Assembly (NCBI GenBank): GCA_944388995.1
Contig: CALXKN010000008.1
Span: 17,160-81,159 of the forward strand
Reading direction: 5' to 3'
From: an uncultured Spirochaetota bacterium
GTDB lineage: Bacteria; Spirochaetota; Spirochaetia; JAFGXN01
Length of the DNA stretch: 64,000 nt
Shown: piece after piece, positions 51,178-63,842 of the stretch
Layout: each line of letters begins with the position of its first letter
Numbering within the stretch: position 1 is the first letter of the stretch
Made by a program: the position numbers and the translations under genes
The notes under the pieces: model-generated
Databases searched by the model: none
Told to the model about the DNA's origin: nothing
Seen by the model: the letters and a program-made list of their open reading frames with translations, nothing else

Positions 51178-51333
51178 CAGATAACCGGGTTATATCCGAA
51201 AAAAGAGAAAAAAACGGACGAAATATGAACGTCCGCTTTTTTTATATTGACAGAAAAATGAACATAAATTATATTTGTAGTGAGTGTATCACTCATTTTA
51301 AAACATTTTTTATGAGAGGAAGAGGTGGAGTTT

Positions 51334-53007
51334 ATGGGAAGTTTTTCTGTTCGGAAACGGAAACAGTTCGTTTGTTTTTCTGTATTAAAAGCGTTGACAG
51401 CAGCAGCCGTCTTAACGGTCATGTCGTGCGGCGGAGCCGTAGCTGTCGAAAATGTCAAAGTCACGCCGACGGCACTGTCGCTGGGCATCGGCGAAACGGC
51501 GGTTTTAAAAGCGGAAGTGGAACCGGCAGACGCCTCCGTGAACGCGGTGCTTTGGAGCGTTACGCAAGGAACGGCCGTCACGGTGGACGGATACGGCAAG
51601 GTCACGGCAATGACAGCCGGTACGGCAACCGTCACAGCGGAAACGGTCGACGGCGGTAAAACGGCTTCGTGTACGGTGACGGTCGGCAGTATCAGCGACG
51701 GAACAGGCGGAACAGACGGAACAGGAGAAACAGGCGGAACGGTGGCCGTTGAATCCGTTACGCTTGACCGTTCGTCGGTGACGCTGGGAGTCGGCAACTC
51801 GGTCACGCTGCAGGCAACGGTCGAACCGGCGGAAGCAGCCGCCACGGTGGTCTGGAGTCTGGCTTCCGGTGACGGCATTGTGACGGTCGACCAGAAAGGA
51901 CGTATTACGGCAAAAGCGATCGGTGCGGCAACTGTGGCTGTCGAAGCCGGCGGTGAAACGGCCACCTGTCTGGTTACGGTCATTCGGGAAGGTGTCATTG
52001 CCGATTTGGCTTTTATTGACGCGGTTGAAAGAGATATGCAATCAACTTGGGGCCTTAACGACGGTTGGGTTAAAGAAATTGACGGAACCGTACGGATGAA
52101 TTGGCGAAATATGAAAATCGTTAAAGAGGTTACAGAATTGTACTTGAGTAATGAAAATCTTTCTTCTTTGGACGGAATCGAATATTTTACCGGTTTGGAA
52201 TTGTTATCCTGCAGCAATAACCGGCTGACAGCATTGGATGTCGGAAATTTGCACAATTTAAAAACATTGTATTGCGGTAACAATCAGATAGAAACAGGGA
52301 AGCTGATTTTACCGCCGCAGCTTACCTATTTGAGCTGCTCTGATAACCGGTTGGAACAACTGGATGAAACGGTATTACCGGCCGGTCTGACGGAATTGTA
52401 TTGCCAAAATAATCCGCTGACAAAATTGGAAGTGGGAACGCTTACGAAACTGACAAAATTGGACTGTGCCGGAGGACAATTAACACGATTATCGGTAAAC
52501 GGATTAACCGAATTGACCTATCTGGCCTGCGGTTTTAACAATCTTTCTCATCTGGATATAGCAATGGGTAGAGAAGAAATCAATTCAAATCTGGAAACAT
52601 TGTACTGTCAGTATAATAATTTGGCTTATATAAACGTATATGAAATAAAGACATTGAAAGTTCTTGTCTGTGACAATAATAAAATCAGCAGTTTGAACCT
52701 ACCGTACTCGACTTCCACAGAGCAAAGTCCGTTGTACTATCTGACATGTTCCGGAAATAATATAAGCCGGCTGGATGTGGCAAAGTACATAAAGCTCAAC
52801 GCTCTGGATTGCGAAAAAAATGAAATAACCGAATTAAATATTACTAAGCTGACCGGTTTAACATCAACATCTTTTTTCCGCTGCGGAGGGCAGAGAAATG
52901 AAAGCAATCAAATGGTTTTACATCTGACAAGTGATCAGAATACTTTATGGACAAAGAATTGGAAAAAATATAACAACGGTGTCGAAACCCGAATCGCAGA
53001 GCCGTAA
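51334..53007 (+). CDS. Surface lipoprotein with two Big_2 (bacterial Ig-like) domains followed by leucine-rich repeats
   Basis: Lipobox VMSCGG. Two Big_2 units (VTPTALSLGIGETAVLKAEVEPADASVNAVLWSV..GKVTAMTAGTATVTA). Ten or more LRRs (LxxLxCxNNxLTxLDV). Confidence 0.8.
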   Translation: MGSFSVRKRKQFVCFSVLKALTAAAVLTVMSCGGAVAVENVKVTPTALSLGIGETAVLKAEVEPADASVNAVLWSVTQGTAVTVDGYGKVTAMTAGTATVTAETVDGGKTASCTVTVGSISDGTGGTDGTGETGGTVAVESVTLDRSSVTLGVGNSVTLQATVEPAEAAATVVWSLASGDGIVTVDQKGRITAKAIGAATVAVEAGGETATCLVTVIREGVIADLAFIDAVERDMQSTWGLNDGWVKEIDGTVRMNWRNMKIVKEVTELYLSNENLSSLDGIEYFTGLELLSCSNNRLTALDVGNLHNLKTLYCGNNQIETGKLILPPQLTYLSCSDNRLEQLDETVLPAGLTELYCQNNPLTKLEVGTLTKLTKLDCAGGQLTRLSVNGLTELTYLACGFNNLSHLDIAMGREEINSNLETLYCQYNNLAYINVYEIKTLKVLVCDNNKISSLNLPYSTSTEQSPLYYLTCSGNNISRLDVAKYIKLNALDCEKNEITELNITKLTGLTSTSFFRCGGQRNESNQMVLHLTSDQNTLWTKNWKKYNNGVETRIAEP

Positions 53008-53403: not shown

Positions 53404-55218
53404 CTATTCTTTTTTTTCGAAAACGTATCTGATGTCAAAACTGTCGAGAGCATCAAATGTCACATTTTCCCATTTATTGCGAACGGCCAAAAACGCATAC
53501 GGCCGCACCAGATAAACCAGCGGCACCTCTTCCCAAATGATTGACTGGTAACGGTCCCACAACGCTTTCGCCTTTTCGGCATCCGCGGTGTAGGAGGCTT
53601 CCGTATACAGACGGTCGATTTCGGCTTCCCATTCGGTTGCCGGCGTTTTCTGATTTGGATACCACATATGGAGGTTGCCGCCGCTCGGCCACACGTTGAC
53701 GCCCTGGCTCGGAAACAGGTTGCTGCCGGAAAGCGCAATCGACAACGACTGCCAATCGAACGAGTAGAGGAGGGAGTCTACCATTTTCGCAAAATCGACC
53801 GTGCGGATTTCCATCGCAATTCCCTGTTTTTTCAAATCATCGGCATAAATGTTGGCAATGTCCGACAGCTGCGGATTGTCAGCGGAAATCCAAAAGTCAA
53901 ACGCGACGGCGTTGCCCTCTTTATCGCGTAAAACGCCGGCAGAGTCCTTCTCCATTCCGATAGACGTCAACAGCGCGGCCGCTTTTTCCGGATTGTAAAA
54001 ATAGTTGAAAACAAGACTCTCCTCAAACACCGGCGAGGCTTCATGAAAAAAGTGGGTGACCGGTTTCGCTAAACCACGGTAAACATTGCGGATGATTTTT
54101 TCCCGATCCAGAAGGCAGCTCATTGCCTGCCGGAACTCTTTCTGTGAAAACCAATTATAATACTTGCGAGGCAGCGCACTGCGGTTAGGGTTTTGATTCC
54201 ACGTGATAAAAGCCGCTGTCGGAGCCGGACCGCCGTTAATCACCTCGTAACCGCCTTTTTCCTGTTCGGACAGCACGGAATCCAAATCGGCAGGCATCAC
54301 CGACAGCGTTTCCAGTTCGCCGTTTTTGAAAAGCAGCAGCTGCGTTGAAGGATTGGAAACGAACGAAAAACGCACCGTATCAAGGTAGGGCAGCCGCTGA
54401 CCGACGCTGTCTTCCAAAAAATAGTGCGGGTTGCGCCGCAGCTCCAAAACCAGTCCGGGCGTGTAACGGCTGATGTAAAACGGTCCGGCAGTCGGAACGG
54501 TGCTCGGATCGGTATTAATGGTAATAAAATCAATGACACGTTGAGAGCCGCCTTCCTTCTTTGCCGCCTCATAAAGAAACCGCGGCCCGATTTGCAGATT
54601 CGCCGCCAACAAAGGATCGGCGACAATTCGCGGAAAAGTCAGCCGAAACGACGAATCGGTCAGCTTCTCCGCGGTAATTTCGCCGCGGCTCCCGTCCGGC
54701 ATCGGCACAAACATCCCCGAATATTCAGCCATATTCAAAGCCGGATCTTTGATGATTTCCTCAATCCAAAAAACAGCGTCGTCGGCATTGAATGCGATTG
54801 TTTCGCCTGTCTTCGGCACAAACCAACACAAACCCGACTTAAATGTGAAATCAACCTCGGTGACCTGACGCTGCTCATCAACACGGACTTCAAAATCGGC
54901 AATGTGCCCCGACCATTTTTTTTCATAAACATCATATTCCAACAAATACGGACAAAGGTAACTCATCACAGCGCTCGTTGGTAAATCATTGATACGCGTC
55001 AAATTGAATGTCGACGGGTCCGACTCCATCGCCTCGTTCCAAACCCCACCGTAACGTCCGATTTTCCGCTCTCCGCCGCCCGGCCGAACCGTCATCTGCG
55101 ACAGAAAGCCGTTTTGGGCTTCCGCCCGCAAAGCCGCCGCCTCCTGCGTCGACACTTCCTTTTTCGGACCGCATGAAACTGCAGCCGCCGCCAAAACCGC
55201 CAAAAAAAAGCCCTTCAT
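53404..55218 (-). CDS. ABC transporter substrate-binding lipoprotein, family 5 (OppA/DppA-like peptide or nickel binding)
   Basis: Lipobox AAVSCG. Size of about 600 aa and SBP_bac_5-like sequence. Confidence 0.7.
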   Translation of the reverse strand: MKGFFLAVLAAAAVSCGPKKEVSTQEAAALRAEAQNGFLSQMTVRPGGGERKIGRYGGVWNEAMESDPSTFNLTRINDLPTSAVMSYLCPYLLEYDVYEKKWSGHIADFEVRVDEQRQVTEVDFTFKSGLCWFVPKTGETIAFNADDAVFWIEEIIKDPALNMAEYSGMFVPMPDGSRGEITAEKLTDSSFRLTFPRIVADPLLAANLQIGPRFLYEAAKKEGGSQRVIDFITINTDPSTVPTAGPFYISRYTPGLVLELRRNPHYFLEDSVGQRLPYLDTVRFSFVSNPSTQLLLFKNGELETLSVMPADLDSVLSEQEKGGYEVINGGPAPTAAFITWNQNPNRSALPRKYYNWFSQKEFRQAMSCLLDREKIIRNVYRGLAKPVTHFFHEASPVFEESLVFNYFYNPEKAAALLTSIGMEKDSAGVLRDKEGNAVAFDFWISADNPQLSDIANIYADDLKKQGIAMEIRTVDFAKMVDSLLYSFDWQSLSIALSGSNLFPSQGVNVWPSGGNLHMWYPNQKTPATEWEAEIDRLYTEASYTADAEKAKALWDRYQSIIWEEVPLVYLVRPYAFLAVRNKWENVTFDALDSFDIRYVFEKKE

Positions 55219-55224
55219 GCCGCC

Positions 55225-55253
55225 ATAGTAAAAGAAAGCCGCCGTCCTGTCAA
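55225..55253 (-). promoter_or_regulatory. Promoter for the oppA-like gene (TTGACA-17nt-TACTAT), with the -10 box 6 nt from the ATG (leaderless candidate)
   Basis: Minus-strand sequence reads ttgacaggacggcggctttcttttactatggcggcATG, immediately abutting repeat copy A. Confidence 0.45.
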
Positions 55254-55254
55254 C

Positions 55255-55421
55255 CTTTTCGTTTTTTGGGCGCGCGCCCCTGCGGGGCGCCGGGCTTTCC
55301 GCTGCAATTCGCAGCCTCCCTGCGCCTTCACCGCGGCAAAGCTGCCGCTTTGCCCTGCGCCTTCTCTCCGTCGGCAGCTCATTTCCGCTTCAATCCCTCG
55401 CGCCTTCGGCAAGGTGCTGCG
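55255..55421. repeat. GC-rich 166/167-bp structured repeat, copy A
   Basis: About 99% identical to 56426..56591 (a single 2-bp indel). Contains a GGGCGCGCGCCC palindrome and hairpins gctgc-aattc-gcagc and ggcaaagc-tgcc-gctttgcc. About 68% GC in a genome of about 50% GC. Confidence 0.9.
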
Positions 55422-55616
55422 GAAATCGGCATTTTATTGTTTTAGTGTAAAAATGGGAACTTCCGAAAACAGTCAACCGTTTTTCGGAAAAATAACTGCC
55501 CTAAACGTATTTTTGTGTTATAATAACTCCAATAAAAATTTCGTATGGCAAACACAGCAAAAGCAAAACCCGAAAAAAACGCCGATTAAAACCGGAGCGG
55601 AAGATTCGGGAGAAAC

Positions 55617-55922
55617 TTGGAGCGATCGGGTATGAGCTGTAATCTTCCTGAAAGCGTGGTTTTCGATATTGAACGATTCGCAAAGAAAAACAAGATTAAA
55701 AAGGTCGTTCTGTTTGGCTCCCGCGCGAGGGGCAATCATTCGGAACGAAGCGACATTGATTTGGCGGTCAGCGGTGGAAACGCGGCGGATTTTTATTACG
55801 ACGTCAATGAAGAAGCGCGGACTCTTTTAATTTTTGATGTGGTCAATCTGGACGGACCGGTCAGCGGCGAACTGCGCGCCGAAATAGAAAAGGACGGAGT
55901 TTTACTCTATGAAGAAATTTGA
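55617..55922 (+). CDS. Minimal nucleotidyltransferase (MNT), MntA-like antitoxin of a type VII TA pair
   Basis: GS-x9-DxD nucleotidyltransferase motif (LFGSRARGNHSERSDIDLAV). Overlaps the downstream HEPN gene by 14 nt. Confidence 0.8.
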   Translation: MERSGMSCNLPESVVFDIERFAKKNKIKKVVLFGSRARGNHSERSDIDLAVSGGNAADFYYDVNEEARTLLIFDVVNLDGPVSGELRAEIEKDGVLLYEEI

Positions 55923-56304
55923 CAATTTTTGCAAAGCGCTTTCGAATTTGCGGGAAGGATTGCAGCTTGAAGAACCGTATTCTGTCGTCGAACGGACGGG
56001 CATCATCGGGCTGTTTGAAATTTGCTTTGAGCAGGCATGGAAGCTGATGAAAGCGGTTTTGGAAGAGCACGGCAGGACAATCGACCGCGTCGGTTCCCCG
56101 AAAGTTGTCATTCAGCTTGCATATCAGAGCGGGATGATTGACGACAGCGAAAAATGGCTTTCCCTGCTCAGAGATCGAAATATCCTTGCTCACACCTACA
56201 GCGACGAAGATTCGCTTGCCGTGATTCGAACGTTAAAGACGGACTACGAGCCCTTGTTCGCCACCCTCAAAGAAGAGATTGAAACGCGCCGGCTTTCGGC
56301 GTAA
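55909..56304 (+). CDS. HEPN-domain protein, HepT-like toxin
   Basis: HEPN Rx4-6H motif RNILAH in the C-terminal helix. Size and pairing are typical of HepT/MntA pairs. Confidence 0.75.
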   Translation: MKKFDNFCKALSNLREGLQLEEPYSVVERTGIIGLFEICFEQAWKLMKAVLEEHGRTIDRVGSPKVVIQLAYQSGMIDDSEKWLSLLRDRNILAHTYSDEDSLAVIRTLKTDYEPLFATLKEEIETRRLSA

Positions 56305-56425
56305 AGCGGAGGCGCGAAACAACTGAGTCCGGTATGAAAGTAGAAGAAATGGGAGCGAAAACTCTTTCAATCGCCACTGATTCTGCCAGCATCTTTACAT
56401 TTGGCTCCGCCCCCCCTCGCTGAAT

Positions 56426-56591
56426 CTTTTCGTTTTTTGGGCGCGCGCCCCTGCGGGGCGCCGGGCTTTCCGCTGCAATTCGCAGCCTCCCGCGCCTTCA
56501 CCGCGGCAAAGCTGCCGCTTTGCCCTGCGCCTTCTCTCCGTCGGCAGCTCATTTCCGCTTCAATCCCTCGCGCCTTCGGCAAGGTGCTGCG
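56426..56591. repeat. GC-rich 166-bp structured repeat, copy B
   Basis: Direct repeat of 55255..55421, located between the convergent HEPN gene and the 961-aa gene. Confidence 0.9.
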
Positions 56592-56655
56592 AAAGAGGCG
56601 TCTGAAAACTATAAATATGAGAACAATCTCATTTAAACCTCATCCATTTTTATCT

Positions 56656-59541
56656 TCAGCAGAAATGCGCCATATCGCGCGGATAATACTTGCAGTCGTG
56701 CAGTTCCGTGTCGTCAAGCCCCAGCGCCTTTACCAGGGCAGCAGACGCTATGCACCAGTACCCGCGGTACTGGTTCTTTTTCAAGTCAAATTTTGTTATA
56801 AGCCCATCAGTCTTCGTGTGAATCCACTGTCTTTTAAGATACCGTTTTAACCGCTCAACAGCCGCCGCTTTATTCTCTTTTGAAAGCAGTACCACCTCAT
56901 ATACCGCATTGGAATATTTCGGACAGCAGAGCTTTTCCGTGCGTATCTGCCAGGATGAGTCCAGCGTCTGCATAAGGAAATCCAGATAAAAATCCCGCTG
57001 TTCCGATTTTTGTAACAATTTTCGATAGTCATCCAGAAATTCAGTCCTGTTAAAAAGCATAATCAAGTACAGAACAGTTTCCATATCTTCATAATTATCA
57101 TTGCCGTCCTGTGCGTCTATCAAATGACGCAAAATCAGGTCTACTTCGGGAAGCAGCTCATGCATATCTAGCCCTAAGGAATATCCTGTATAAAATTTGT
57201 AAAATGCATAAGTATATATTTGATATTTAAACGCTCTTATGTCCGATTCTGCCTGATGTTCATCAGTCTCAATATTATGATGATGATACGTTTGCAGTAT
57301 TTCTTTCAGCTTTTGGGAATCTTTCTTGAATCTTTCGTCAAAATATTCCTGGGGTTTGACTTTATCCCTCATCATTCTTACCCGGGGCGGAAGTTTTTCC
57401 CGCTCCTCCTCCGTAAGAAATTGCGACAGTTCAACTAAAAAGGGCTCTATAAACTCCGACATGAGTTTCGCTTTATTCCCGGCTGAGTGATCATAAGGTA
57501 TTTCAATTGCCGATGTCCGCCGTTTCTCATCCTTCCACAAGCGTCCTATTTTAATAAATGAACCGCCTTTCTCAAATATGTACAACGATATAATCAGTGT
57601 GCAGTCTTCATACTCACATTCTATATAATCTTGCTCCCCCAAGCAGTAATCTCTGTAGGTAAGATTCCTCAAAGTGGTTATTATCCAGGGTATCCACTCT
57701 TTTTTGATGACAACACTATCCCATGACTGCCATGACCCGGTACCGAAACGGCTGCCGGTTCTGGTGTTGATTCGTAGTTCGCCTTTGGGACTCCAGGGCG
57801 TGGGAAGTTTTTTCCGTTCTTCTTCAGGAAGAAATTGTGACAAGGCCACTAAGAAGGGTTCTATAAATTCCGACATGATTTTCAAGTCGTTGTCCGATTC
57901 TTCAAAATTAAATTCGAAACGGGTATAACGCCACTTTGATGTCAGGGTATAACTCTGCTCATTTTTTGCATGCCAAGGAAAATAAGGTATTTCAAGTGCC
58001 GGCGATATCTTCTTTTCATCCTTCCACATGGGAAATATTTTTATATAGGAATACCCATCCCCTATAGGACAGATACTTAATGTTAATTGGCACGTTCCCC
58101 ATTTATTTATGATGCTTTCAACTCCTGTTTGATAATTATCAACACTAAGATTTCTCAATGTGCTTATTATCCAGGGTATCCGGTTTTTTTGTATAACAAT
58201 ACTTTTCTGCTGCCCGCCGCCGAATGTACCGGTTCTTTTTCCGTTAATCCGTAATTCATCGTTATCTAATTCCTCGAAGCTGTATTCAAAATCGGCATTC
58301 AGAGTTTTTTTGCTTTGATATTTTGTTATCTTCTCTATTTTGGCTACTATCGATTCGTCGTCCGACTTATCGGTTTCGCCTGCATACCAATCTTTGCCTT
58401 CGAGCCATACCCCGAACCAGAAAGGAAGATCCCCCCAAGGTCTTTGACAGAGTTCTTTCTTTTCGTTGACACTCCAGGGGGGCGACAGTTTACCCCTTTC
58501 TTCTTCCGTGAGAAACTGCGACAATGCAACCAGAAACGGCTCTATAAATTCCGACATTAATTTTGTTTCTTTCCGGGATACATAGGGTATTTCAATATTC
58601 CATGAACTCTTATTTTCATTTTTCCAGACAGGATAAATTTTGATATAGGAATAATCAAAGGGTACTACATTTATAATAAAACTTAAATTACAGTAACCGT
58701 ATTCATATACGAGAGTTTGCGGGGTGTTATAATCGTCGATAGTGGCATTTCTTAGTGTGGTAATGATCAAAGGTATCCACGCTTTTTTTATGATAATACT
58801 TTCCCATTGTCCCCTGCCGAATGAATCTGTTCGCTTTGCATTGATTTCCAACTCGTCATCATTTAATTCTTCATTGTCAGCTTTTTCCTCAAAATAAAAT
58901 TCGAAATGAACATTCCCGCCCTTACTGATCAGGTATTCTTTTTCTGCCAGTCCGTATTGTGTTATACCGGTCATTGCTTTGAAAAAATTGAGGGAACCGC
59001 TTTCCTTATCGGCAAAAATGATGTTCTGTTTTTTGTTTTCCCTCCAGGGAGGCGGAAGTTGTGTTCTTTCTTCTTCGGTAAGGAATTGTGCCAATTCAAC
59101 CAAAACAGGTTCGATAAATTCCGCCATTAACCTGCTTTTATCCCAGGGTAGATATGGTATTTCAATAAACGGTGTCGTTTTTTCCTTCGGTTCCTTCCAT
59201 ATGGGCATTATTTGAAGGGTCGCATAATCTTTGGCAGATGGTAAAAACTCCAGATTGACTTGACATTCTTCATATTCGTGAACGATATGTCTGTTCCAAA
59301 TCCCTTCCGGAAAGTTGATGTCGTAATCCTCAAAAGGAAGGGTTCTCAGTGTGGTGATAATCCGGGAAATCCACGCTTTTTTTATGACGATACAGTAATA
59401 CAAAGGCATACGTTCCGCTTCATCCAACAATGGAAAGGTTATTTTTTCGAAAATCCGTATTTCGTCGTTGTCCGATTCCTCAAAATGAAATTCAAAGGTA
59501 TCGGATATTTCGGCATCTCCCCTTCTGCCTGTAATGAACAT
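56656..59541 (-). CDS. Large modular protein with four rearranged ~170-200-aa tandem repeats plus a C-terminal domain paralogous to ORF 59781..60401
   Basis: Repeats fall at roughly aa 16-212, 213-417, 418-541 and 542-~740, with shared motifs FEFxFEESDNDELRI..KRTxxFGxGQWxSIxIKKxWIPxIITTLRN..DY, ..YIKIxPxWKxExK..EIPY.. and KLMSEFIEPFLVxLSQFLTEEERxKLPPPW. The C-terminal ~200 aa is about 70% identical to the stand-alone ORF upstream. Confidence 0.7.
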   Translation of the reverse strand: MFITGRRGDAEISDTFEFHFEESDNDEIRIFEKITFPLLDEAERMPLYYCIVIKKAWISRIITTLRTLPFEDYDINFPEGIWNRHIVHEYEECQVNLEFLPSAKDYATLQIMPIWKEPKEKTTPFIEIPYLPWDKSRLMAEFIEPVLVELAQFLTEEERTQLPPPWRENKKQNIIFADKESGSLNFFKAMTGITQYGLAEKEYLISKGGNVHFEFYFEEKADNEELNDDELEINAKRTDSFGRGQWESIIIKKAWIPLIITTLRNATIDDYNTPQTLVYEYGYCNLSFIINVVPFDYSYIKIYPVWKNENKSSWNIEIPYVSRKETKLMSEFIEPFLVALSQFLTEEERGKLSPPWSVNEKKELCQRPWGDLPFWFGVWLEGKDWYAGETDKSDDESIVAKIEKITKYQSKKTLNADFEYSFEELDNDELRINGKRTGTFGGGQQKSIVIQKNRIPWIISTLRNLSVDNYQTGVESIINKWGTCQLTLSICPIGDGYSYIKIFPMWKDEKKISPALEIPYFPWHAKNEQSYTLTSKWRYTRFEFNFEESDNDLKIMSEFIEPFLVALSQFLPEEERKKLPTPWSPKGELRINTRTGSRFGTGSWQSWDSVVIKKEWIPWIITTLRNLTYRDYCLGEQDYIECEYEDCTLIISLYIFEKGGSFIKIGRLWKDEKRRTSAIEIPYDHSAGNKAKLMSEFIEPFLVELSQFLTEEEREKLPPRVRMMRDKVKPQEYFDERFKKDSQKLKEILQTYHHHNIETDEHQAESDIRAFKYQIYTYAFYKFYTGYSLGLDMHELLPEVDLILRHLIDAQDGNDNYEDMETVLYLIMLFNRTEFLDDYRKLLQKSEQRDFYLDFLMQTLDSSWQIRTEKLCCPKYSNAVYEVVLLSKENKAAAVERLKRYLKRQWIHTKTDGLITKFDLKKNQYRGYWCIASAALVKALGLDDTELHDCKYYPRDMAHFC

Positions 59542-59780
59542 TGCATCTACCAGTTTAAGAAAAGCTTTTGTATCAGCGGATTGGGCAGATTCTTCATGTT
59601 GATCGTCTTCTTTATTATATTTTATTCCGACTCCTAAGGAACGCAGCCGTCATATCGAAGGGGTGCAACGGTATGACGGCCAACACTCCGCTTTCACGCG
59701 GTGGTCTTATGCTGTTCATGTCGATACCGGACCGCTTCCGACACAACCGAATGAAGTTTTCCGATTTTCCGAATCAATTT

Positions 59781-60401
59781 CTAACAGAAATGGGTCATAT
59801 CGTAGGGATAGTATTTACAGTCTTTCAGTTCCGTATCGTCAAGTTTGAGGGCTTTTACCAAAGCGGCGGCGGCGATGCACCAATACCCCCGGTACCACCC
59901 TATTTTCAGATCCCGGTTGGTTATAACACCTTCGGTTAATGACATAAACCACTGCCTTTTAAGATACCTCTTTAACCGCTGGACGGCTTCCGCCTTGTTT
60001 TCTTTTGACAGCATTACCACCTCGTATACCGAATTGGTCTCTTTGGGGCAACGAAGTTTTTCCGTACTTATCTGCCATGTGGAGTCTACTATCTGTACAA
60101 GATAATCCAGGTAAAAATCCCGCATTTTCGATTTTTGTAATAACTCCTTATATTCATCCAGAAATTCTGTCCGGTTAAAAAGAATGATTAAGTATATAAT
60201 CATTTCCATATCATCATAACCTCTGTCCCTTTCTCTCGTTGTATCAATCAAATTTCTTATGATAAGGTCTACTTCGGGAAGCAGCTCATTCATACCAAGC
60301 CCCAGGGAATAGCCTGCATAAAATTTACAAGCTGCTTCCATATATATGTGATATTTAAACGACCATACATTATATTTTTCCGGATGGCTTATTCTCTTCA
60401 T
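59781..60401 (-). CDS. Stand-alone paralogue of the C-terminal domain of the 961-aa protein (unknown function)
   Basis: FKYHIYMEAACKFYAGYSLGLGMNELLPEVDLIIRNLID...YRGYWCIAAAALVKALKLDDTELKDCKYYPYDMTHFC aligns with FKYQIYTYAFYKFYTGYSLGLDMHELLPEVDLILRHLID...CKYYPRDMAHFC. Confidence 0.65.
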   Translation of the reverse strand: MKRISHPEKYNVWSFKYHIYMEAACKFYAGYSLGLGMNELLPEVDLIIRNLIDTTRERDRGYDDMEMIIYLIILFNRTEFLDEYKELLQKSKMRDFYLDYLVQIVDSTWQISTEKLRCPKETNSVYEVVMLSKENKAEAVQRLKRYLKRQWFMSLTEGVITNRDLKIGWYRGYWCIAAAALVKALKLDDTELKDCKYYPYDMTHFC

Positions 60402-60642
60402 ATTTACTCATCCGTTCAGCAAGATCAGACGCATCCTTATTATATCTTTCCCTAAAATATTCTTCTGTTTTTATGGTGTCTCTCATCTGTTATTCCTTGT
60501 GTATTTTGTAAATTTTTGGTTTATTCTCGTTATACATAACATTGCCATTTTCATCAAGTTGGTAATATGTTACTTTTCCTCCCTTCGGAACGCCTGCGGC
60601 GTGGCTACAATCCTTTGTGCGAGAAGATTTTTATCAATGGTG

Positions 60643-60700
60643 TCCGTACACACCCATTGATGTTGTCAAAGAACTCCTTCTGTACGGAGATAGGGGGAGG
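60643..60700. repeat. 58-bp perfect direct repeat, copy 1 (copy 2 at 63943..64000)
   Basis: tccgtacacacccattgatgttgtcaaagaactccttctgtacggagatagggggagg is identical at both sites. Contains an internal 8-bp inverted repeat (tccgtaca/tgtacgga). Confidence 0.9.
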
Positions 60701-60701
60701 G

Positions 60702-60929
60702 TTATTCAAAAGTTATTACCATATGCGAACCTGCCGTTTTTTCGGTTACTTTCTGTATAATCTCTTTTTTGTCATCTTCAGTTAATGGCTCGTTTTCTGG
60801 AACAAGCCAATTTTTCATTGAACTTTTATAACAGACAAAACCGCCTACTATCATTTCGCCTGCGATTCTCGCAGTTCTGCCATCGAGTTCTACATCTATG
60901 TATGTGTTTGTTCCGGTTATTTTTGTCAT
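60702..60929 (-). CDS. Small hypothetical protein, possibly an immunity protein; a truncated copy of its 5' end lies at 62318..62350
   Basis: 75-aa ORF 8 nt downstream of a DUF600-like gene. Its first ~10 codons recur after the second DUF600-like gene. Confidence 0.45.
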   Translation of the reverse strand: MTKITGTNTYIDVELDGRTARIAGEMIVGGFVCYKSSMKNWLVPENEPLTEDDKKEIIQKVTEKTAGSHMVITFE

Positions 60930-60938
60930 ATATTAATC

Positions 60939-61271
60939 CTATGCATTATCCCATTCGTCTTGAAGAGCCTGATCCCATTCAAAGGTCATATCAAAGTGAC
61001 CGTTCTTTTCAAGGGTGTAAATAGCTTTGTTCCATTGTGCAAAATGTAACTCTTTTGCACTATTATGAAATTTTATTAAATCAATTTTTGTTTCTCGATT
61101 AAGTGCTAAGTTTAAAGCATTTTTCCATTCTCCATTAATCTGATATTTTGCATTCGTACCAATATATTTATCACTACATTCAATATTCAGTTCAATTTTA
61201 TCCCAAGAGGAATCAATACTATCATTCAATTGCGAACCAATATTTTTATATATATCTTCAATATTTTTCAT
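60939..61271 (-). CDS. DUF600/EsaG(YezG)-like immunity protein, paralogue 1
   Basis: N-terminus IYKNIGSQLNDSIDSSWDKIEL resembles EsaG IYNEIANEISSMIPVEWEKVY. Its C-terminal block NGHFDMTFEWDQ is shared with paralogue 2. Sits immediately downstream of the nuclease toxin fragment. Confidence 0.55.
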   Translation of the reverse strand: MKNIEDIYKNIGSQLNDSIDSSWDKIELNIECSDKYIGTNAKYQINGEWKNALNLALNRETKIDLIKFHNSAKELHFAQWNKAIYTLEKNGHFDMTFEWDQALQDEWDNA

Positions 61272-61283
61272 AAATACTCCTAT

Positions 61284-61648
61284 TAATTTAAGAAGAACAA
61301 ATTTTCTGTTTTTTCTATTTTTCCATCCGATGTTTTTATAATGTATGTTACATCAAAATCTGTCGGTCTTAGATTATCAGCATAGTTTATTTTTATATCA
61401 ACTTCAACCTTTTTTCCCTCTGAAAGTGCATCGTTCCATTTTTTTTCCATGGTTTTCCATTCACCATTATTTAGTGTGGCGGTTTGTGGAACATAATTTA
61501 TTTGTTCTCCAGGACCATTGAAAATTCTTGCAATAATATGTCCGCCCTGGTCATCACCTTTAATACCATCTTTTATATCAACTGATTTTCCTTGTTGATA
61601 AACATTTCTGTCTTTTGTTTCAAGTTTTAATTCTCCGCTTACTTTGTT
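61284..61648 (-). pseudogene. Orphan C-terminal fragment of a His-Me-finger (Serratia-type / Endonuclease_NS) non-specific nuclease toxin domain; no start codon
   Basis: A stop-to-stop frame translates to ..KDGIKGDDQGGHIIARIFNGPGEQINYVPQTATLNNGEWKTMEKKWNDALSEGKKVEVDIKINY.., with the His-Me-finger catalytic His in GGH (canonical DRGH) and the metal-ligating Asn in N-Y-VPQ (Serratia nuclease N-I-TPQ..LNQGAW). In-frame tag and taa stops lie upstream and there is no ATG before the motif. Confidence 0.55.
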
Positions 61649-61731
61649 TTACAACTATTTTCTTTTACTTGCAATTGTTCCAAAACGATTAAGTGCAGCA
61701 ACAATATCTTCATAATCAGCATCTATTTCAT

Positions 61732-62262
61732 CTAACTGTCCCAGATTTCCTTAAATTTTAAACCTTTGATACTGTTTTTCTTAACAATATCTATAAACTC
61801 ATCTGTTACAAAATAATCTCGAATAATTAATTGATTTTGTAGTTTAACTTGAAAAAGAGGTGGATAATTGTTTTCCTTAAAATAATATTGCTCAACACCT
61901 AAAATATCATTCTCAAAATACTTATATTTAGTTTTTTTTCGATCTAAGCAGTCCAAAACAGTTAAATTATTTAATAGTACAAAATCGTCATTAAGCGGAA
62001 CAAATCTTATATTTATTTGAGAAATGTCAGAAAGTACTGCCATAAATTTTTTATTTATGAAGAATCCTCTACAATCATAACATTCACAAATATCCCCTGC
62101 AGGATTATTAGAATCTCTATCGTATTCTAATTGAAAATCAGAAGGAATGCTTATTTCTATACCTTTATTAAACTGACGTAAAATTTTTCTATCAGTTTCT
62201 TCGTTTTTTATATAGCATCCTTTGTAATTATCAATATCTGTTTCTAAAATGTATATTTTCAT
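61732..62262 (-). CDS. Hypothetical protein (putative immunity protein) with a G8 tract in its RBS
   Basis: 176-aa ORF in the immunity-gene array. The run ggggggggatatATG sits immediately upstream of its start. Confidence 0.5.
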   Translation of the reverse strand: MKIYILETDIDNYKGCYIKNEETDRKILRQFNKGIEISIPSDFQLEYDRDSNNPAGDICECYDCRGFFINKKFMAVLSDISQINIRFVPLNDDFVLLNNLTVLDCLDRKKTKYKYFENDILGVEQYYFKENNYPPLFQVKLQNQLIIRDYFVTDEFIDIVKKNSIKGLKFKEIWDS

Positions 62263-62266
62263 ATAT

Positions 62267-62274
62267 CCCCCCCC
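62267..62274 (-). repeat. Homopolymeric G8 tract (C8 on the plus strand) 4 nt upstream of the start codon of ORF 61732..62262
   Basis: Plus strand reads atatatccccccccTAATTG; the ATG of the minus-strand gene is at 62260-62262. Confidence 0.9.
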
Positions 62275-62362
62275 TAATTGTGAATTTTTAAGAAACCACT
62301 CAATAATTCCTTTCGGATTGTTTGTATGTGTTTGTTCCGGTTATTTTTGTCATATATTAATC

Positions 62363-62686
62363 CTATGCATTATCCCATTCGTCTTGGAGAGTTTGATCCC
62401 ATTCAAATGTCATATCAAAATGACCATTCCTTTCAAGAGAGTAAACAGCTTTGTTCCATTTATGCTCAGGCGACATAGATTCTTGAAGTTCAAAAACGCT
62501 ATCCATTAAAGTATTTACAGTTAATAAAGGAAACTTTAATTCTTTTTTTTCAAACGATGATAAAGTATATTCTGCCTGAAATGAACACATTTTATTTAGA
62601 CTTGATTCTATTTTTACAGTCACTTTTTCCCATTTACCGGAAATATTATCTTGAACCGCCTTGCCTAATTCTTTATATAAATCCAT
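62363..62686 (-). CDS. DUF600/EsaG(YezG)-like immunity protein, paralogue 2
   Basis: GKWEKVTVKIE ... WNKAVYSLERNGHFDMTFEWDQTLQDEWDNA. Its C-terminal 40 aa is nearly identical to 60939..61271. Confidence 0.55.
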   Translation of the reverse strand: MDLYKELGKAVQDNISGKWEKVTVKIESSLNKMCSFQAEYTLSSFEKKELKFPLLTVNTLMDSVFELQESMSPEHKWNKAVYSLERNGHFDMTFEWDQTLQDEWDNA

Positions 62687-62732: not shown

Positions 62733-63842
62733 TTATTTCTCTTTATTTAAAATAAACAGATACTCAGAGACGTGTATATTACGGTTATTCAAATTTCTGC
62801 TTCCCCGGAATGTATTATAAGTCATTTCAACGGTTTTCAGTTTTCCGTAGTGTTCCAGCATTGTTTTCATTTGCTCAAAAGTAATAAATCCTTCAGAATT
62901 ATAAGAGATAATGACAAACTTTGAATCAATTTTATCTATGATTTTTTCCATGGATTTTAAGGCTGAATAAGGTTTGTTGAATTCCGAGCGGTTCCAATCC
63001 TGAGTTATCCCTGAAACTTTACTGATTTCAGCATCCAGCCTGTTCTTTATGATAAGATTCAGCATAAAATAATTTGAACCATAGGGATGCTGGTTATACG
63101 GGGGATCCAGATAAGTAATATCTATTTTTTTTAATTCCCCGGCAAGTTCCACAGCATCTTTTTTATAGATTTTAACCTTTGAATTGAAATTGCTTAAAAC
63201 CGGCTCTTTCAGTTCTATTTTTCCAAAAATGCGGGTTAAAGCGTTTTTCCCGGCAGCGCCGAAACATCCGATTCCGGTATTTTTGTCCTTGTAAAACCCT
63301 TTGAAAACCCCGCTTGTATTGACATGAACCGAAGCCTCCGTTACGAGCGGCGCTAAAAAAAATTTTTTCATGTCTTCTTCCTGCACCACTTTATCAATCA
63401 GACTGCGGTAAGTGTCGATTAACAGAGCGTTCTCATGGGTATAAAAAACCCTTTCTCCTCTTTGAATATTTCCGTCATCCTGAGGGGCATAATTTTTTGT
63501 GATAATTCTCGGTTCTTTTTTGCTGCGGCACATTTCTTCTATTATTGATTTATATTCCCGCCATTTTTCATGCGGAAAATCTTTTTTGTCAGTCAGATAG
63601 CATTCATTGATGAGGCGGGAATATTCTTCCAGATCATTGGCAATTAAAACACTGCTGTATTTTTTCAGCATCCGGGCAACAATTCCCGAACCGGAGAAAA
63701 TATCCGCACAAACAAGTTTTTCTTTTCCCAATAAACCGGCAATTTTTTTGACTTCTTCTTCTATATTCCTGATAAGCTGCCGTTTGTTCCTGATATAAGT
63801 AATGATCTGTGCAGTAAGATATTCTTTATTTTCTTCTTTCAT
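62733..63842 (-). CDS. DNA N6-adenine methyltransferase (DPPY motif), either orphan or part of an R-M system beyond the window
   Basis: Motif I DIFSGSG and motif IV TYLDPPYNQHPYGSNYF. No restriction endonuclease gene is visible within the window. Confidence 0.7.
   Translation of the reverse strand: MKEENKEYLTAQIITYIRNKRQLIRNIEEEVKKIAGLLGKEKLVCADIFSGSGIVARMLKKYSSVLIANDLEEYSRLINECYLTDKKDFPHEKWREYKSIIEEMCRSKKEPRIITKNYAPQDDGNIQRGERVFYTHENALLIDTYRSLIDKVVQEEDMKKFFLAPLVTEASVHVNTSGVFKGFYKDKNTGIGCFGAAGKNALTRIFGKIELKEPVLSNFNSKVKIYKKDAVELAGELKKIDITYLDPPYNQHPYGSNYFMLNLIIKNRLDAEISKVSGITQDWNRSEFNKPYSALKSMEKIIDKIDSKFVIISYNSEGFITFEQMKTMLEHYGKLKTVEMTYNTFRGSRNLNNRNIHVSEYLFILNKEK

Follow-up and report, generated by a model that had tools for sequence, protein, structure and literature searches.

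The gene at positions 56656-59541 (minus strand) of a 64,000-nucleotide stretch of contig CALXKN010000008.1 from an uncultured Spirochaetota bacterium, the whole of which is called the window here, encodes a protein of 961 amino acids that is probably a polyimmunity protein, with four PUR-like immunity domains directed against variants of a putative toxin linked to extracellular contractile injection systems (eCIS), followed by a PoNi domain. As we picture it, the protein would be cytoplasmic and would hold several toxin-neutralising domains in one chain. Small standalone relatives of the four domains would be the cognate immunity proteins of a putative toxin domain encoded next to them, different variants of that domain would most likely be bound and blocked by the four fused modules, which are old paralogues, and the C-terminal PoNi would block DNases of the PoNe type. 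Immunity of this kind would be orphan, or pre-emptive, and set against toxins delivered by competitors, the gene standing among other orphan immunity genes. A fused poly-immunity array in the style of SUKH or Imm concatenation had been one hypothesis of an earlier, sequence-only reading of the stretch, and the array is now the favoured and likely explanation, given the PoNi C-terminus, standalone members linked to the putative toxin domain and an immunity-gene island on the same strand.

The four modules, of ~150-175 amino acids each, can be followed by their motifs: FEFxFEE starts at residues 16, 213, 418 and 542, KKxWIxxIITTLR at 53, 251, 450 and 612, EIPY stands at 127, 317, 517 and 680, and the MSEFIEP helix at 141, 331, 558 and 696. 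A profile hidden Markov model (HMM A2), made of standalone homologues from other samples only and with the window sequence excluded, gives five matches to a six-frame translation of the window, all inside this open reading frame (ORF) and none elsewhere, and its matches to the modules are far above chance. The four-module architecture first proposed from the sequence alone is borne out by both. Module 1 (M1; residues 13-187, 58981-59505, this and the following features all being on the minus strand) covers profile positions 2-167 at E 1.5e-48 and is complete, including a relic of the C-terminal extension known from standalone members. Module 2 (M2; residues 212-365, 58447-58908, E 2.5e-59) has a 6-residue insertion within the loop joining strand 1 and strand 2. 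The body of module 3 (M3; residues 415-526, 57964-58299, E 1.7e-48) covers profile positions 2-113 only, with eight strands and helix 1 and without the second helix, and ends after EIPYFPWHAK. Module 4 (M4) is in two pieces, since its strand 1 (FEFNFEESDND, residues 542-552, 57886-57918, placed by repeat family D3 and motif mapping) is cut off by an inserted helix from the remainder (residues 587-733, 57343-57783, profile positions 15-155, E 1.6e-48), which runs from strand 2 through the module's own tail helix. The inserted, displaced tail helix (residues ~550-586, 57784-57894, MSEFIEPFLVALSQFLPEEERKKLPTPW) matches profile positions 110-146 at E 4e-14, and the 35-residue tail copy (LKIMSEFIEPFLVALSQFLPEEERKKLPTPWSPKG) is placed exactly between FEFNFEESDND and ELRIN of M4, besides the tail helix that M4 retains; the lack of a tail in M3 and the transposed block in M4 are thus as originally described.

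The PoNi part takes up residues 725-957, within the last ~236 amino acids. PoNi_C (PF08929, DUF1911; residues 849-957, 56671-56997) is matched at E 1.4e-17 with 64.9 bits over a cut-off of 25, and is accompanied by a marginal match to PoNi_N (PF08928, DUF1910; residues 725-831, 57049-57369) at E 1.1e-4 with 22.7 bits over a cut-off of 22.4. The earlier statement that no known domain was recognised therefore fails for the C-terminus and holds for the repeated module, as scans of the whole protein and of the modules against Pfam, NCBIfam, PHROGs, PADLOC and PDB sequences found nothing except PoNi. Between whole modules the DNA is 57-64% identical, so that the ~70% once given for the repeats applies to the conserved tail blocks and best segments only (67-76%, the tail blocks by themselves 67-74%); amino-acid identity over the module cores is 44-55%. 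The modules are too diverged for the array to be called by Tandem Repeats Finder, and self-BLAST of the whole protein returns the identity match only, the modules being mapped by motifs and HMM instead.

An AlphaFold2 model of module 2 (residues 199-376, alignment of 40 sequences), the single-module check proposed at the outset, gives a PC4-like fold with a predicted local distance difference test score (pLDDT) of 80.4 and a predicted template modelling score (pTM) of 0.78. The model shows two sheets and two packed helices in a bbbba-bbbba arrangement, the so-called tail being a confident second helix, so one module is, on this prediction, one PUR-type (PC4-like) domain built of two PUR repeats. 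Pfam clan CL0609 includes PurA, Whirly, PC4 and MRP, and the likeness of the module to this sPC4L or PC4-like superfamily is one of topology and not of sequence match: 20 family members have no Pfam match even at E<=5, PurA and Whirly included, searches of NCBIfam, PHROGs, PADLOC and PDB sequences are equally without a match to the family, and identity of the module to Pur-alpha is only 8-12%. Such a fold raises the question of whether the modules are true single-stranded nucleic-acid binders of the PUR or Whirly type, which we regard as very improbable. The isoelectric points (pI) of the modules are 4.6-5.4, and acidic modules argue against binding of single-stranded nucleic acid, as far as composition can tell; the family is limited to a few gut Treponema, where it is linked to the putative toxin domain and to immunity genes; and a PC4-like fold has already been recruited for toxin binding (PMC9424270). 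The tail-less body of M3 taken alone has a pI of 9.0.

Since a PC4-like domain needs both helices, the displaced helix most plausibly complements M3. Lying in the first hairpin of M4, it probably supplies the helix that M3 is missing, and M3 and M4 would then make an interlocked pair. Insertion into the first-hairpin loop is tolerated elsewhere, as the 6-residue insert of M2 indicates.

Orthologues of the fusion exist in other assemblies. L017 (JAHLFV010000136.1, a Candidatus Treponema excrementipullorum metagenome-assembled genome, MAG) has the same junctions and 98.7% nucleotide identity over 3.2 kb, and L015 (uncultured Treponema, 79% nucleotide identity) is an orthologue with the shared architecture, as are L014 and P0146. 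Two fragments from metagenomes, P0001 and P0002, extend across the M1-M2 and M3-M4 junctions. An artefact of assembly, which had been left standing as an explanation of the repeats, is now ruled out, since all the junctions recur in independent assemblies. The comparison of copy number called for at that time shows three modules in P0146 (724 amino acids), four in the window and in L017 (987 amino acids) and five in L015 (1138 amino acids). The layout of M3, displaced tail, M4 and PoNi core is identical in all three orthologous polyproteins, and the displaced helix has the same placement in L015, L014, L017 and P0146. By position, M1 of the window corresponds to the second module of L015 (78% amino-acid identity), M2 to the third (79%), M3 to the fourth (62%) and to the second of P0146 (86%), and M4 to the fifth of L015 (75%) and the third of P0146 (98%). 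Modules inside one protein are mutually 37-48% identical and in a neighbour-joining tree interleave with standalone lineages, the extra first module of L015 grouping there with the standalone protein P0045. When the window is compared with L015, the ratio of nonsynonymous to synonymous substitution rates (dN/dS) is 0.26 for M1, 0.25 for M2, 0.37 for M3, 0.40 for M4 and 0.19 for PoNi.

Given these ratios of 0.19-0.40 and the position-by-position orthology, the fusion is old, kept by purifying selection and not homogenised, and the tail displacement, being present in orthologues with matching modules 62-98% identical, is an old fixed feature and not a recent scar. Unequal recombination had been thought to be shuffling the modules, which overstated the case, as the displacement is fixed and the modules are orthologous by position. 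The real variation is in module number at the N-terminal end (three, four or five) and in mosaicism within the PoNi domain. In P0146 and L014 the N-terminal half of the fused PoNi is 85-88% identical to the fused PoNi of the window, whereas the C-terminal half is nearer to a standalone PoNi next to the window gene (76-79%) than to the fused one (70-71%), and in L015 likewise the C-terminal half is nearer to the standalone PoNi (59781-60401) than to the fused PoNi (56671-57369). Mosaicism of this sort between lineages indicates recombination between the two PoNi paralogues.

Comparison with L017 and L015 also defines the start region of the gene. A leader at 59542-59635 holds 28 in-frame codons and an ancestral AGGAG ribosome-binding site (59631-59635), and the ancestral ATG, which in L017 stands seven bases past AGGAG, is ATA in the window (59623-59625), beside a 3-nucleotide insertion. 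The 28 codons from the ancestral start to the ATG at 59541 stay in frame, and in L015 they form the linker after the additional upstream module. With the ancestral start changed to ATA, translation would proceed from the ATG at 59541 or from a non-canonical codon. A promoter and terminator scan around the gene found no excess over shuffles. The lost ATG, together with the frameshift in the neighbouring PoNi gene, toxin remnants within the island and the L014 version, which is broken into ORFs of 115 and 626 amino acids, could be taken to mean that a former tandem gene array has fused by read-through into an ORF that is now decaying, a pseudogene in progress with no function of its own. We think this unlikely, because the 2.9-kb frame is intact in the window and also in L017, L015 and P0146, and because dN/dS is low in every segment.

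What the modules may do is suggested by their standalone relatives. A profile of the four modules finds 187 proteins in a collection of 5.8 billion sequences, nearly all standalone, 170-200 amino acids long and without any Pfam domain. HMMER over 1.84 billion cluster representatives gives 51 family members at E<=1e-3, almost all from gut Treponema, and the 185,579 species genomes scanned contain 13 family loci, mostly in Treponema or spirochaete MAGs; other family loci are titled Paludibacteraceae, Methanobrevibacter and Mucispirillum and are mostly on contigs of ~5-8 kb. Among the more divergent relatives, P0179 combines a module-like domain with the C-terminal end of an Imm11-like protein (resembling that at 61732-62262 of the window), and P0185 (442 amino acids) has a weak match to the family profile (E 1.7e-4, one stretch), with further very divergent module-like domains apparent by eye.

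A survey of the genomic neighbourhoods of homologues, likewise suggested by the sequence-only reading, puts standalone members next to a putative toxin domain or its remnants. This domain, called CT, is a conserved C-terminal domain of ~260 amino acids encoded just before standalone family members, and in every retrieved CT-bearing locus the standalone gene is co-oriented and starts at the CT end, from a stop/start overlap to ~30 nucleotides beyond. In L001-L004 a CT protein of 788 amino acids is paired with a family member of 175, and in L018 one of 801 amino acids with a member of 177; the two partner proteins are 35% identical, and in both CT is the last third and comes after a DUF4157/eCIS_core gene. 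L021-24 have a 266-residue CT protein and a 192-residue family member, likewise after a DUF4157/eCIS_core gene, and L025/26 a CT homologue of 227 amino acids (42% identical) followed by two family members of 177 and 183. Only 3' remnants of CT, reaching over profile positions 171-265, 199-265 or 224-261, are found in L008, L009, L010, L011 and L025/26, and each abuts an intact family member. A second CT profile search gave 56 proteins, none with an informative Pfam or recognisable trafficking domain, and many of the matches are fragments of 82-118 amino acids. Near CT genes there are eCIS_core (PF13699), Phage_base_V, AAA ATPase and DUF2997 genes, and in L025 two PoNi genes and a Colicin-DNase/WHH and DUF6985 pair occur among the family members.

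An intact toxin-immunity pair accompanied by orphan toxin-tip/immunity cassettes is the signature of polymorphic toxin loci. Because of this layout, the adjacency to CT and the orphan remnant cassettes, the modules are assigned an immunity role against CT as a putative toxin, and the standalone family has the downstream, co-oriented placement and the orphan cassettes of cognate immunity genes. On this reading the modules would bind CT, and the fused ones would most likely differ in their specificities. One could instead suppose that the family comprises chaperones or loading adaptors for the eCIS-associated partner and that the fusion is a multi-adaptor. Adaptors are not expected to outlast their effector, however, and purifying selection has preserved the modules where neither the 64-kb window nor the retrieved flanks contain a partner gene; the modules are fused to a known immunity domain inside an immunity-gene island, and a 3' remnant followed by an intact downstream gene is a hallmark of immunity cassettes. 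An adaptor role is, for these reasons, improbable.

Two further observations concern CT and its loci. A further group of genes laid out alike lies in the eCIS-like locus of L001 (3704-6903), made of an eCIS_core gene (235 amino acids), a domainless protein of 715 amino acids and a UCP033725 protein of 117, and this may be a second effector/immunity pair. The idea that linkers between the fused modules are translated toxin-tip relics was rejected, as the CT HMM at maximum sensitivity gave no signal in them; the linker after module 1 instead carries on into the C-terminal extension that the standalone members have themselves (profile positions ~160-168).

The genes next to the fusion have a similar character. 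The next gene upstream, at 59781-60486 on the minus strand, is the standalone PoNi paralogue, with a 206-residue ORF at 59781-60401 that is 68% identical in amino acids to the fused PoNi; the ~35 codons of its N-terminus are in a different frame (60370-60486), and this apparent frameshift would be pseudogenisation or a sequencing error. It is followed, still on the minus strand, by Imm74 (60702-60929), a YezG-like gene (60939-61271), a 55-residue remnant of an Endonuclea_NS_2 toxin tip (61283-61450; PF13930, E 3.5e-6, profile positions 90-130 of 132), an Imm11-like gene below cut-off (61732-62262) and a second YezG-like gene (62363-62686). Across 59781-62686 all genes have the same orientation, with spacers of 9 to 281 nucleotides and diverse immunity families, and no intact toxin gene interrupts them, the sole toxin sequence being the Endonuclea_NS_2 remnant. 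As this tip lies 11 nucleotides upstream of the YezG-like gene, the two make an orphan toxin-tip and immunity cassette of the YeeF/YezG type. Its gene content makes the island a polyimmunity locus of heterogeneous composition, as that term is used in PMC3482391. The guanine plus cytosine content falls to 0.33-0.34 across 60-64 kb, and the right edge of the island, low in GC, holds a D12-class N6-adenine DNA methyltransferase gene (PF02086, E 9e-18; 62733-63842, minus strand); a restriction enzyme to go with it, if there is one, would be sited outside the window.

The fused PoNi is not directly downstream of a PoNe gene, the upstream gene being the PoNi paralogue, and a Pfam scan of the ORFs of 47-64 kb of the window found no intact toxin domain, PoNe included, which agrees with the orphan PoNi also known from PMC6688995. 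By tblastn the window has no homologue of the 788- or 801-residue partner proteins or of the DUF4157 protein, so the immunity here would be orphan. A MNT/HepT-like toxin-antitoxin pair and the D12 methyltransferase nearby, and the repetitive architecture itself, might point to a new kind of protein for defence against phages or to a repetitive protein of the cell surface, and the sequence-only reading had held these equally possible. No support for either was obtained: the 961-residue protein has no signal peptide, lipobox or transmembrane segment (maximum 19-residue hydropathy 1.2), no enzymatic or NTPase domain and no PADLOC or PHROG match, its homologues are small and acidic, and their informative neighbours are all toxin or immunity genes. 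Both are extremely improbable.

Several points weigh against a polyimmunity protein directed at CT and PoNe toxins. CT has no match in Pfam, NCBIfam, PHROG, PADLOC or PDB sequences, and its AlphaFold2 model (19 sequences) has a pLDDT of 47.6 and a fold that is not usable, and the assignment of the partner loci to eCIS rests on a few marker genes in partial contigs. Standalone members in L005-7, L012/13 and L016 are without an adjacent CT domain. The order of toxin then immunity gene is blurred by P0122, which fuses a module-like domain to a CT domain, and by a divergent family-like gene upstream of the CT gene or remnant in L010 (483-929), L011 (9280-9723) and L025 (5548-5991). These upstream genes form a divergent module subfamily of 147-148 amino acids (E 1e-7 against the family HMM), and the putative toxin is in these cases flanked on both sides by PUR-like genes. 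On the side of the window, the PoNi_N score is barely over its cut-off, and expression of this copy is uncertain with the ancestral ATG being ATA.

Beyond the 3' end of the gene the window has features of its own. Synteny with L017 stops exactly there, L017 continuing with DeoC, a Metalloenzyme-superfamily gene and an HtrA-like protease and the window with a ~173-nucleotide direct repeat and the MNT/HepT-like pair. The two copies of the repeat (55252-55424 and 56423-56594, 98-99% identical) bracket the pair, which is made of a Polbeta/NTP_transf_2 gene (55617-55922) and an NTase_sub_bind/HepT-like gene (55909-56304), and this cassette was probably inserted or duplicated between an SBP_bac_5 gene and the polyimmunity gene. 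Translation of the repeat accounts for two spurious ORFs, 55215-55412 and 56367-56582. Further away, the gene at 51325-53007 (plus strand), overlapped by long spurious antisense ORFs, encodes a protein of 560 amino acids with two Big_2 domains and leucine-rich repeats (LRR_4), an architecture typical of Treponema surface proteins.

Polyimmunity proteins and loci were described by Zhang, de Souza, Anantharaman, Iyer and Aravind (2012, PMC3482391), and the present case resembles theirs in joining tandem repeats of one family to a structurally unrelated immunity domain, in its place within a cluster of closely spaced orphan immunity genes of diverse families, all on one strand and without an intact toxin gene among them, and in a domain content that differs between related strains. 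PoNi passes the Pfam cut-offs, and the four copies belong to a family whose immunity role is deduced from linkage. Unlike the proteins in that account, the repeated domain here is not SUKH, SuFu or a numbered Imm and belongs to an unannotated PC4/PUR-like family, and two adjacent domains are interleaved by a displaced helix; spirochaetes are not among the lineages listed there with extended polyimmunity loci. The PC4-like fold as a toxin-binding scaffold is known from sPC4L-Imm1/2 and the CdiI structures 4NTQ_B and 5FFP_A (PMC9424270), with which the modules share the predicted bbbba-bbbba topology, two sheets and two packed helices, and, as proposed here, use as a toxin-binding scaffold for immunity. 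From Pur-alpha/PUR (3K44), Whirly and PC4 they differ in the 8-12% identity and lack of a Pfam match already given, in a surface that is acidic and not basic, and in a context of bacterial conflict and not of nucleic-acid metabolism.

PoNe DNases are bound and neutralised by PoNi proteins (DUF1911/DUF1910), which can be and often are orphan, and ~90% of PoNe genes have a PoNi immediately downstream (Jana et al. 2019, PMC6688995). The C-terminal 236 amino acids of the fusion match PoNi_N and PoNi_C as in those proteins, though here PoNi is fused behind four unrelated domains and shows mosaicism with the standalone paralogue next to it. In the account of Geller et al. (2021, PMC8213781) the eCIS core domain DUF4157 is strongly tied to eCIS toxins, a few of which have validated immunity genes, whereas for most none was found. 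The partner genes agree with the pairs presented there in coming after DUF4157/eCIS_core at the variable end of eCIS-like loci and in being followed by a small gene. They differ in that neither the CT partner domain nor the small gene is in a described family, and orphan remnant cassettes and a fused polyimmunity derivative are not found in that paper's account of toxins and immunity. The window itself differs from eCIS loci in having no eCIS genes among the genes examined.

Overall polyimmunity fusions, a PC4-like immunity fold (sPC4L) and PoNi are already known, and no concept is overturned. The novelty lies in the pair of families, in their link to eCIS together with orphan cassettes, in the occurrence in a spirochaete and in two domains being interleaved. 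A bolder proposal, which we put forward as tentative and somewhat doubtful, is that eCIS loci of gut Treponema deliver an undescribed, cassette-diversified antibacterial toxin domain, with the protein of three to five modules as a polyvalent shield against several of its variants, an acquired orphan immunity locus on a Pur-alpha-like scaffold, in which M3 and M4 are obligately interlocked by a permuted helix. If polyimmunity is the right explanation, there would be two linked families new to Pfam, NCBIfam, PHROGs and PADLOC, a Pur-alpha-like immunity domain and its partner of ~260 amino acids. These would give a concrete toxin/immunity pair for the eCIS-like loci of gut spirochaetes, and polyimmunity proteins would be extended to spirochaetes. 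The conserved displacement of the helix between M3 and M4 is a neat case of permutation across domain boundaries, and the diverged modules, being orthologous by position, offer a natural system for asking whether fused immunity domains differ in specificity.

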